Sequence record: PQ666542
Strand: one strand, 5' to 3'
DNA length: 64,000 nt
Origin: Shigella phage sb4
In this document: positions 62,279 to 62,938 of the stretch, in pieces
Layout: every line of letters begins with the position of its first letter
Position numbering within the stretch: the stretch's first letter is position 1
Translations under genes and position numbers: made by a program
Notes under the pieces: model-generated
Told to the model about the DNA's origin: nothing
The model's input: only the letters and a program-made list of their open reading frames with translations
Database searches by the model: none

Positions 62279-62487
62279 AACCATGTAACCTTTAAGCAAT
62301 ATTCTTCTACGTGCTGTTTACGACCTTTCTTATCAATAAAGGTATATTCAACGAATGTTCCAATATAATCTTTATCTACATCATGCGGACTATTACTTGG
62401 GCATTTAGTACGGCAAATGCGTTCCCATTGACGAATAATTTCTGCTTTGTTTTTAGGATCAAACGGATGCGGGTAATGTAGTTTCAT
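62275..62487 (-). CDS. hypothetical protein, 70 aa
   Basis: track ORF. Confidence 0.35.
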   Translation of the reverse strand: MKLHYPHPFDPKNKAEIIRQWERICRTKCPSNSPHDVDKDYIGTFVEYTFIDKKGRKQHVEEYCLKVTWL

Positions 62488-62938
62488 AATCCACCACTAT
62501 TAAATCAATATCAGGAGTAAACATGTCGATTAATTTAGAAACCTTTTCCCAATCTCCACCAGCAATACCACAACCTATGCGTGGAATATAAATTACGGGT
62601 TTAAACAAAAGGGTTTCTGCCTGTAGATTTAATTCTATCATACAGTTTACTAAAGCACCATAATCAAGATTAGGACCCGGTTCGTATTGCGTATACAGGT
62701 TATAGCACATACTAAATCCTGTAGGATTATGTTTAAAAACAATAGACATATCGCCTAATTTATCACGAGAACCGTACTCGGTAGTGGTTTTATCTATTTC
62801 TAAAATTTTTGGATAGGCTCTTGCTAATTGACCTGCTACGCCAGAGCCCATTGTGTGGAAGCAATTACACCCGTGCGCAATAATATTACCTTGAAGAAAT
62901 AGGGCGACAATATCGCCCTTGATATATTTTACAATCAT
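62459..62938 (-). CDS. macro-domain protein (ADP-ribose binding/hydrolase-like), 159 aa
   Basis: track ORF; GNIIAHGCNCFHTMGSGVAGQLA resembles macro-domain core. Confidence 0.55.
   Translation of the reverse strand: MIVKYIKGDIVALFLQGNIIAHGCNCFHTMGSGVAGQLARAYPKILEIDKTTTEYGSRDKLGDMSIVFKHNPTGFSMCYNLYTQYEPGPNLDYGALVNCMIELNLQAETLLFKPVIYIPRIGCGIAGGDWEKVSKLIDMFTPDIDLIVVDYETTLPASV

Follow-up and report, generated by a model that had tools for sequence, protein, structure and literature searches.

The host DarTG system blocks phage replication by ADP-ribosylation of DNA, and the counter-measures of T-even phages are layered, with AdfA, AdfN and AdfM (anti-DarT factor Macrodomain; Tk.4) described so far. 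T4 phage without adfA and adfN was found to remain resistant to DarTG2 (PMC11825919), and another factor was therefore expected. A preprint of November 2025 introduced HIDEN-SEQ, in which a T4 transposon library was screened on a DarTG2-expressing host; tk.4 was the single significant hit, a clean T4 knockout was sensitised to DarTG2, and the gene was renamed adfM, with enzymatic removal of ADP-ribose from DNA inferred by the authors without a test (bioRxiv 10.1101/2025.11.20.689424). Here, the tk.4/adfM gene of Shigella phage sb4 (sequence record PQ666542) is described from a 64,000-nucleotide stretch of DNA, the whole of which is called the window. The product of this gene probably strips DarT2-added ADP-ribose from phage DNA and in this way counters DarTG2. 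Beyond what was known for T4, the locus and its relatives add a Gln-type active site, a mosaic of alleles and a genomic context in which the macrodomain gene stands between genes for Prs and Nampt.

Two further proteins serve as references. PhiKZ gp104, from a chimallivirus and independently also named AdfM, was shown to de-ADP-ribosylate DarT2-modified DNA in vitro (Cell Rep 2026, PMC13309987). The name AdfM was given within months to two lineages, the Gln-type of T4 and the Lys-type of PhiKZ, and this may confuse annotation. SCO6735 from Streptomyces coelicolor is quicker than DarG or TARG1 at stripping the ADP-ribose that DarT puts on thymidine, and it can rescue cells exposed to DarT; its activity is abolished by the Q85A substitution, and H24, N27 and G128 matter too (PMC9411070). 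Because uracil-ADP-ribose in RNA is also a substrate of SCO6735, TARG1 and DarG (PMC13036486), an RNA substrate may be possible for the tk.4 protein as well. Other literature touches the gene in passing: a T2 small RNA preprint lists the tk.4 mRNA, mislabelled thymidine kinase, as an ArcZ partner, with no functional consequence shown, and the NARP3 paper mentions anti-DarT factors, macrodomains not being among its subjects.

Identity of the gene and its position

The window belongs to a Tequatrovirus (T4-like phage), and the 2 kb around the tk.4/adfM open reading frame (ORF) share 97% DNA identity with Shigella phage pSs-1 and likewise with hundreds of Escherichia and Shigella phages. A first-pass annotation of the window had placed a 159-amino-acid (aa) ORF here, which is confirmed and lies on the minus strand (Table 1). 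It had also described the ORF as downstream of tk, which is wrong for transcription: tk.4 lies upstream of tk on the minus strand, where the order is regB, vs.1 (with an SLT domain), vs, the macrodomain gene, tk.3 (DUF7202), small ORFs, tk.1 and tk. In T4, the gene flanked by vs and tk.3 is tk.4, annotated as "phosphatase; contains A1pp phosphatase motif". The position between vs and tk.3 is identical in the window, and the gene is therefore a positional orthologue of tk.4.

The protein products agree with this placement. The window protein and T4 Tk.4 (NP_049723) align over the full length, with no gaps over 155 aa and at 56-57% identity (E=5e-70), and they share the invariant pocket residues, including H22, N25 and Q84. 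T4 Tk.4 is 155 aa long, four codons fewer than the window protein. Overall, this ORF is tk.4/adfM of a Tequatrovirus, already annotated elsewhere and given a function in T4 in 2025; several related phage records label the same ORF "macro domain protein" or "phosphatase".

The vs.1...macro...tk arrangement is kept in 31-34 of 79 IMG/VR loci, at identities to the query down to 36%, and tk.4 is therefore a positionally conserved Straboviridae gene. That it is a real gene is supported by the codon differences between it and its orthologue in Escherichia phage Ec_MI-02, 12 of which are synonymous and 2 non-synonymous. It starts on an ATG that shares bases with the vs stop codon (ATGA), which suggests translational coupling, and its last 29 nucleotides (nt) overlap the start of tk.3, compared with 4 nt in T4. 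The gene sits in the T4 early/middle gene region.

Fold, class and active site

A macrodomain-like core had been noted in the ORF beforehand, and a macro fold was clear on both profile and structure search. The Pfam Macro profile (PF01661) was matched at 34 bits against a gathering threshold of 22 (E=3.2e-8), over profile positions 2-117 of 118. Sequence matches to solved macrodomains were obtained for BT1257 (4e-11), yeast Poa1p (1e-9) and SCO6735 (9e-8), with weaker ones for Mycobacterium tuberculosis DarG (1e-5) and TARG1 (4e-3). An AlphaFold2 model made from 66 homologues (mean predicted local distance difference test score, 94.6) has a predicted three-layer alpha/beta/alpha fold with a mixed central sheet, nearest to solved macrodomains. 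The best Foldseek match of this model was human TARG1/OARD1 (PDB 4J5R/4J5S, E=6e-10), and the nearest structural neighbours were TARG1, DarG, SCO6735/BT1257, Poa1p and ALC1, well ahead of the MacroD, PARG and macroH2A types. These neighbours place the modelled protein in the ALC1/TARG1-like class of macrodomains, whose enzymes take ADP-ribose off thymine in DNA.

The same list of neighbours bears on another proposal of the first-pass annotation, a role against Thoeris signalling, taken here as degradation of ADP-ribose-derived immune signals such as the gcADPR molecules. Apart from Poa1p, every one of the nearest structural relatives is a de-ADP-ribosylase of DNA or protein, and neither experiment nor gene context was found to speak for such signal degradation by the tk.4 family; we give this possibility hardly any credence.

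The sequence of the ADP-ribose pocket is conserved. Residues 19-39 of the tk.4 protein read IIAHGCNCFHTMGSGVAGQLA, and the glycine-rich loops for the diphosphate and distal ribose of ADP-ribose are conserved (G31-S-G33 and G122-C-G124...G127-G128). Among 67 homologous sequences, 39-97% identical, that were used for residue conservation, the residues G8, H22, G23, N25, C26, G33, A35, N80, Y82, Q84, P119, G122, G124 and W130 are invariant. The H22 and N25 columns align with H24 and N27 of SCO6735, N22 of DarG, N23 of PhiKZ AdfM and H23 of Poa1p, and G124 is the equivalent of SCO6735 G128. The diphosphate loop, PRIGCGIAGGDW, is nearly identical to PRIGCGLAGGTW of SCO6735 and PRIGCGLAGGKW of BT1257; its CGIAGGDW portion is AGIGKGNW in T4 Tk.4.

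At the catalytic position, the protein departs from the best-known members of its class. In a profile-to-PDB alignment, Q84 was found opposite K84 of TARG1 and A126 opposite D125, and the TARG1 dyad is therefore absent. A multiple alignment combining the phage family with the SCO6735, BT1257, DarG and PhiKZ gp104 sequences placed Gln in the Q84 column for the phage family, BT1257 and SCO6735 (the Gln of NMIGQHG, which the SCO6735 numbering confirms as Gln85), whereas Lys occupies it in TARG1 (K84), both DarGs (K80) and PhiKZ gp104 (K78). SCO6735 (PDB 5E3B) and BT1257 (PDB 2FG1/2AFC) are cellular Gln-type ALC1-like proteins with 27-29% identity to the window protein; unlike the phage family, they carry a mobile-loop insertion with Lys89/Lys93, the loop of this subclass being five residues longer than in DarG/TARG1. 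Aligned with BT1257, the phage proteins are 6 residues shorter at this place and have no Lys there (sequence YEPGPN). Being Gln-type like SCO6735 and short-looped like DarG and TARG1, the window protein represents a third variant within the class. Assignment to DarG was ruled out by the replacement of the catalytic Lys by Gln, assignment to TARG1 by the missing Lys/Asp dyad, and strict membership of the SCO6735 subclass by the missing long mobile loop.

Human TARG1/OARD1, which removes thymine- and uracil-linked ADP-ribose, has the PRIGCG loop in common with the window protein, but its K84/D125 dyad is replaced by Q84/A126. The DarG macrodomains (Thermus aquaticus, PDB 5M31/5M3E; M. tuberculosis, PDB 5M3I) are 19-22% identical to the window protein, which has Gln84 for the catalytic Lys80 and scores 29.2 bits against a cutoff of 250 with the NCBIfam model antitoxin_DarG (NF048014). 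The C-terminal DarT-binding domain of DarG is absent from the single-domain window protein, and the adjacent genes are vs and tk.3, with no darT. Like the T4-type protein, PhiKZ gp104 is a stand-alone macrodomain encoded by a phage and directed against DarTG2, yet it is DarG-like and Lys-type (N23, K78), shares 21% identity with the window protein (hhalign probability 96.9%) and is imported into the phage nucleus. The two proteins named AdfM are thus separate recruitments of the same fold class.

Whether catalysis is the main mode of action can also be asked of these residues. DarT2 might instead be neutralised mainly by binding of the toxin or by shielding of ADP-ribosylated DNA, as the catalytically dead SCO6735 Q85A, DarG K80A and TARG1 K84A variants inhibit DarT in vitro, SCO6735 most strongly (PMC9411070). 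However, the residues at pocket and catalytic positions are all invariant in homologues down to 39% identity, as an enzyme would show, and a toxin-binding domain like that at the C-terminus of DarG has no counterpart in the single 159-aa domain; neutralisation of this kind is considered very unlikely.

The window allele most likely acts as T4 tk.4 does, in a phage family that would be enzymatic on DNA. A role against DarT-like DNA ADP-ribosylation had been raised in the first-pass annotation, and it draws support from the T4 knockout genetics and from the biochemistry of SCO6735, which among characterised enzymes is the nearest in structure. The host DarT2 toxin would ADP-ribosylate thymidines in single-stranded phage DNA and block replication; the tk.4 protein, as an orphan "antitoxin-like" eraser, would bind the ADP-ribose in its glycine-rich pocket and hydrolyse the ribose-thymine glycosidic bond, restoring replicable DNA. 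Catalysis would probably take the SCO6735 route and not the lysine route of DarG and TARG1, with Gln84, together with His22 and Asn25, holding the substrate and a water molecule in position, as in the mechanism put forward for SCO6735. If so, the AdfM locus would explain the plating of such phages on DarTG2 hosts and would be useful for host-range prediction of therapeutic T4-like phages.

Several points weigh against DNA de-ADP-ribosylation as the function. The window protein is 56-57% identical to the tested T4 protein, from which the function is carried over. What is known for T4 rests on genetics reported in a preprint, and hydrolysis by the T4-type protein is a step that we infer. The phage family is without both the 5-6-residue longer mobile loop and the Lys89 to which SCO6735 owes its high DNA activity. 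It has an invariant Gly23 in place of SCO6735 Val25, at a position (Val/Ile25) whose backbone is proposed to position the catalytic water. The similarity to yeast Poa1p, an ADP-ribose-1''-phosphate phosphatase, about equals that to SCO6735. In several unrelated phages, a homologue lies between NAD-salvage genes, hinting at another or an additional substrate.

Alleles, gene context and possible other substrates

The gene in the window carries an allele distinct from that of T4. The surrounding products are close to their T4 counterparts in amino acid sequence (rI, 94.8%; tk, 95.3%; tk.1, 91.9%; vs.1, 97.8%; vs and tk.3, Table 1). At the nucleotide level, identity to T4 is 93-95% inside tk.3 and at least 90% for vs and the first ~25 codons of tk.4; divergence from T4 Tk.4 begins after about codon 25-40 and extends to the 3' end. 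The flanks compared with T4 were 60300-62434 and 62867-64000. This sharp drop in identity between conserved flanks is a mosaic replacement that takes in roughly the C-terminal three quarters of tk.4. In the phage collection, 310 records contain a copy with 90% or greater identity to the window allele, while the T4 allele is represented at 95% identity or more in 221 records and at 80-90% identity in 159. Several tk.4 alleles, of at least three classes, therefore circulate among Tequatroviruses, the window allele being the commonest, and every one of them retains the invariant pocket residues.

Outside the T4-like phages, the homologue keeps different company. It was found directly beside the genes for ribose-phosphate pyrophosphokinase (Prs) and nicotinamide phosphoribosyltransferase (Nampt) in Acinetobacter phage phiAbaA1, Vibrio phages VF16 and phi 3, and Pseudomonas phage JG005. 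In these groups (Acinetobacter Saclayvirus, Vibrio VF16, Pseudomonas Pakpunavirus and T5-like Vibrio phi 3), RNA ligases are often nearby, and the macrodomain gene is wedged between the other two in at least four unrelated phage groups. The homologue in Cronobacter phage CR9 is not beside Prs and Nampt. Among 45 non-T4-like IMG/VR loci, Nampt was found within 6 kb in 10; no Prs was detected in the IMG/VR loci by tblastn with phage Prs proteins at E<1e-8, probably owing to divergence, and Nampt alone was countable. This context suggests a recurrent link of the Tk.4-like macrodomain family with phage salvage of nicotinamide adenine dinucleotide (NAD+).

The context also gives some footing to the main rival reading, a small-molecule enzyme like Poa1p, that is, an ADP-ribose-1''-phosphate phosphatase or O-acetyl-ADP-ribose deacetylase that clears ADP-ribose derivatives arising in RNA repair or NAD turnover. 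Database labels ("phosphatase", A1pp motif), similarity to Poa1p in sequence and structure, and the adjoining Prs and Nampt genes of other phages all fit such an enzyme. On the other hand, the phenotype of the T4 knockout concerns DarTG2 specifically, and in T4-like phages tk.4 is not beside NAD-salvage genes. We know of no Tpt1/KptA step in T4-like phages that would make ADP-ribose-1''-phosphate. Of the residues probed in the Poa1p structures, H23 and S30 align with H22 and T29 of the window protein, and F152, which is not conserved, with Ala126. Poa1p (PDB 6LFQ) further differs in a long insertion in its C-terminal half and in the lack of a Gln at the equivalent strand end. As a replacement for DNA de-ADP-ribosylation, a Poa1p-like activity is regarded as quite improbable; the activities are not mutually exclusive, and it could be an additional one.

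Sharp allele divergence, a Gln-type short-loop site and the Prs/Nampt context together make it conceivable that the Tk.4 family acts on a wider or different set of substrates, such as uracil-ADP-ribose on RNA, ester-linked ADP-ribose on proteins, or ADP-ribose metabolites that feed NAD+ reconstitution. This is unlikely; if it holds, the exchange of alleles among T4-like phages could mark a change in specificity or escape from a host counter-measure.

The ADP-ribosyltransferases of the phage itself offer a further set of possible targets. The first-pass annotation had credited the phage with modA and modB and had suggested that the macrodomain reverses their ADP-ribosylation. Homologues of both genes, 89-94% identical to T4, are indeed present at 17381..18617, but both are interrupted in the window as read. 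Reversal or tuning of the modification of host proteins by Alt, ModA and ModB, or of ModB-type RNAylation, meets a chemical objection, and the link to modA and modB is weak: Alt and Mod enzymes modify arginine, whereas the ADP-ribose that ALC1/TARG1-class macrodomains are known to act on is joined through an ester (Glu/Asp) or to thymine or uracil, and they are not known to act on the arginine-linked form. In addition, tk.4 and the mod genes lie 44 kb apart and share no context, and tk.4 is intact while modA has a stop and modB a frameshift, a difference that may be an artefact of sequence quality. We consider a role of this kind highly improbable, and DNA de-ADP-ribosylation remains the preferred function.

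Table 1. Features of the tk.4/adfM locus, by position in the window, and loci from other phages (last two rows, by locus label)
Feature	Position	Strand	Basis
tk.4/adfM ORF, 159-aa stand-alone macrodomain protein	62459..62938	-	ORF, Pfam, fold model
Codons 22-25, H-G-C-N; H22/N25 invariant in family	62864..62875	-	alignment
Codons 31-33, G-S-G, first glycine-rich loop (GxG) of ADP-ribose pocket	62840..62848	-	alignment
Codon 84, invariant Gln at catalytic Lys position	62687..62689	-	alignment
Codons 119-130, PRIGCGIAGGDW, diphosphate-binding loop	62549..62584	-	alignment
Divergent allele segment	62435..62866	-	43-69% nt identity to T4, against 90-99% either side
vs (valyl-tRNA synthetase modifier), upstream neighbour	62935..63282	-	96.5% aa identity to T4
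tk.3 (DUF7202), downstream neighbour	62275..62487	-	92.9% aa identity to T4
Prs/Nampt-linked macro loci	L004 (967-4471), L005 (3135-6152), L007 (1-3483), L008 (2095-5153)		gene context
IMG/VR loci cited for the NAD-salvage link	L036-L041, L058, L059, L074, L076, L079		gene context

Sequence quality and minor features of the window

A total of 98 annotated pSs-1 genes were mapped onto the window (14999-64000) in a collinear alignment of 96.9% identity. Codon changes relative to pSs-1 comprised 796 synonymous, 477 non-synonymous and 28 nonsense changes, the premature stops being spread over 22 of the 98 genes (24 TAA and 4 TGA, with no TAG). The homologue of the DNA polymerase (898 aa) is among the interrupted genes, E178 being changed to TAA, and homopolymer frameshifts relative to pSs-1 are also present; stops and frameshifts are exemplified by positions 32045, 17890, 18278, 62155 and 62089. 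Recoding of stop codons was ruled out, as TAG is not among the window stops and these stand in place of eight different amino acids. A phage with the window sequence as given would not be viable, and this is most simply read as error or noise in the sequence. The window copy of tk.4 is an intact ORF, equal in length to the pSs-1 and Ec_MI-02 versions.

The interruptions of the mod genes can be located precisely. The modA homologue (17381-18617, minus strand) has an in-frame TGA at codon 32, where T4 and pSs-1 have Gly, and a 2-nt CC insertion at 18278 splits the modB homologue into two ORFs. pSs-1 and T4 have uninterrupted copies of modA and modB, and the interruptions are probably part of the sequence-quality problem of the window.

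Near tk.4, about 370-400 nt between tk.2 and tk.3 (~61885-62284) are without a T4 counterpart. In relatives, this segment holds two small ORFs, of 58 aa (61899..62075) and 68 aa (62072..62278), neither with a Pfam match; the 68-aa ORF has two in-frame stops in the window. On the other side, vs.1 (63275-63820, minus strand) gave a weak Pfam match to the SLT lytic transglycosylase family, above threshold at 23.2 versus 21.3 bits; the protein is a "hypothetical protein" in the T4 RefSeq record and has a signal-like hydrophobic stretch at its N-terminus.

A promoter and terminator scan of 60800-64000 showed no enrichment of promoter-like sites (8 found, 13.6 expected), and its only notable match was a hairpin within the tk.4 ORF. 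This near-perfect, GC-rich hairpin of 8 bp, AGGGCGAT-ATT-GTCGCCCT, spans 62901-62919 on the minus strand (tk.4 codons 7-13), with a T-rich stretch after it. The hairpin is the same in T4, and could be an RNA structure that affects translation or processing, or a mere by-product of the conserved coding sequence.
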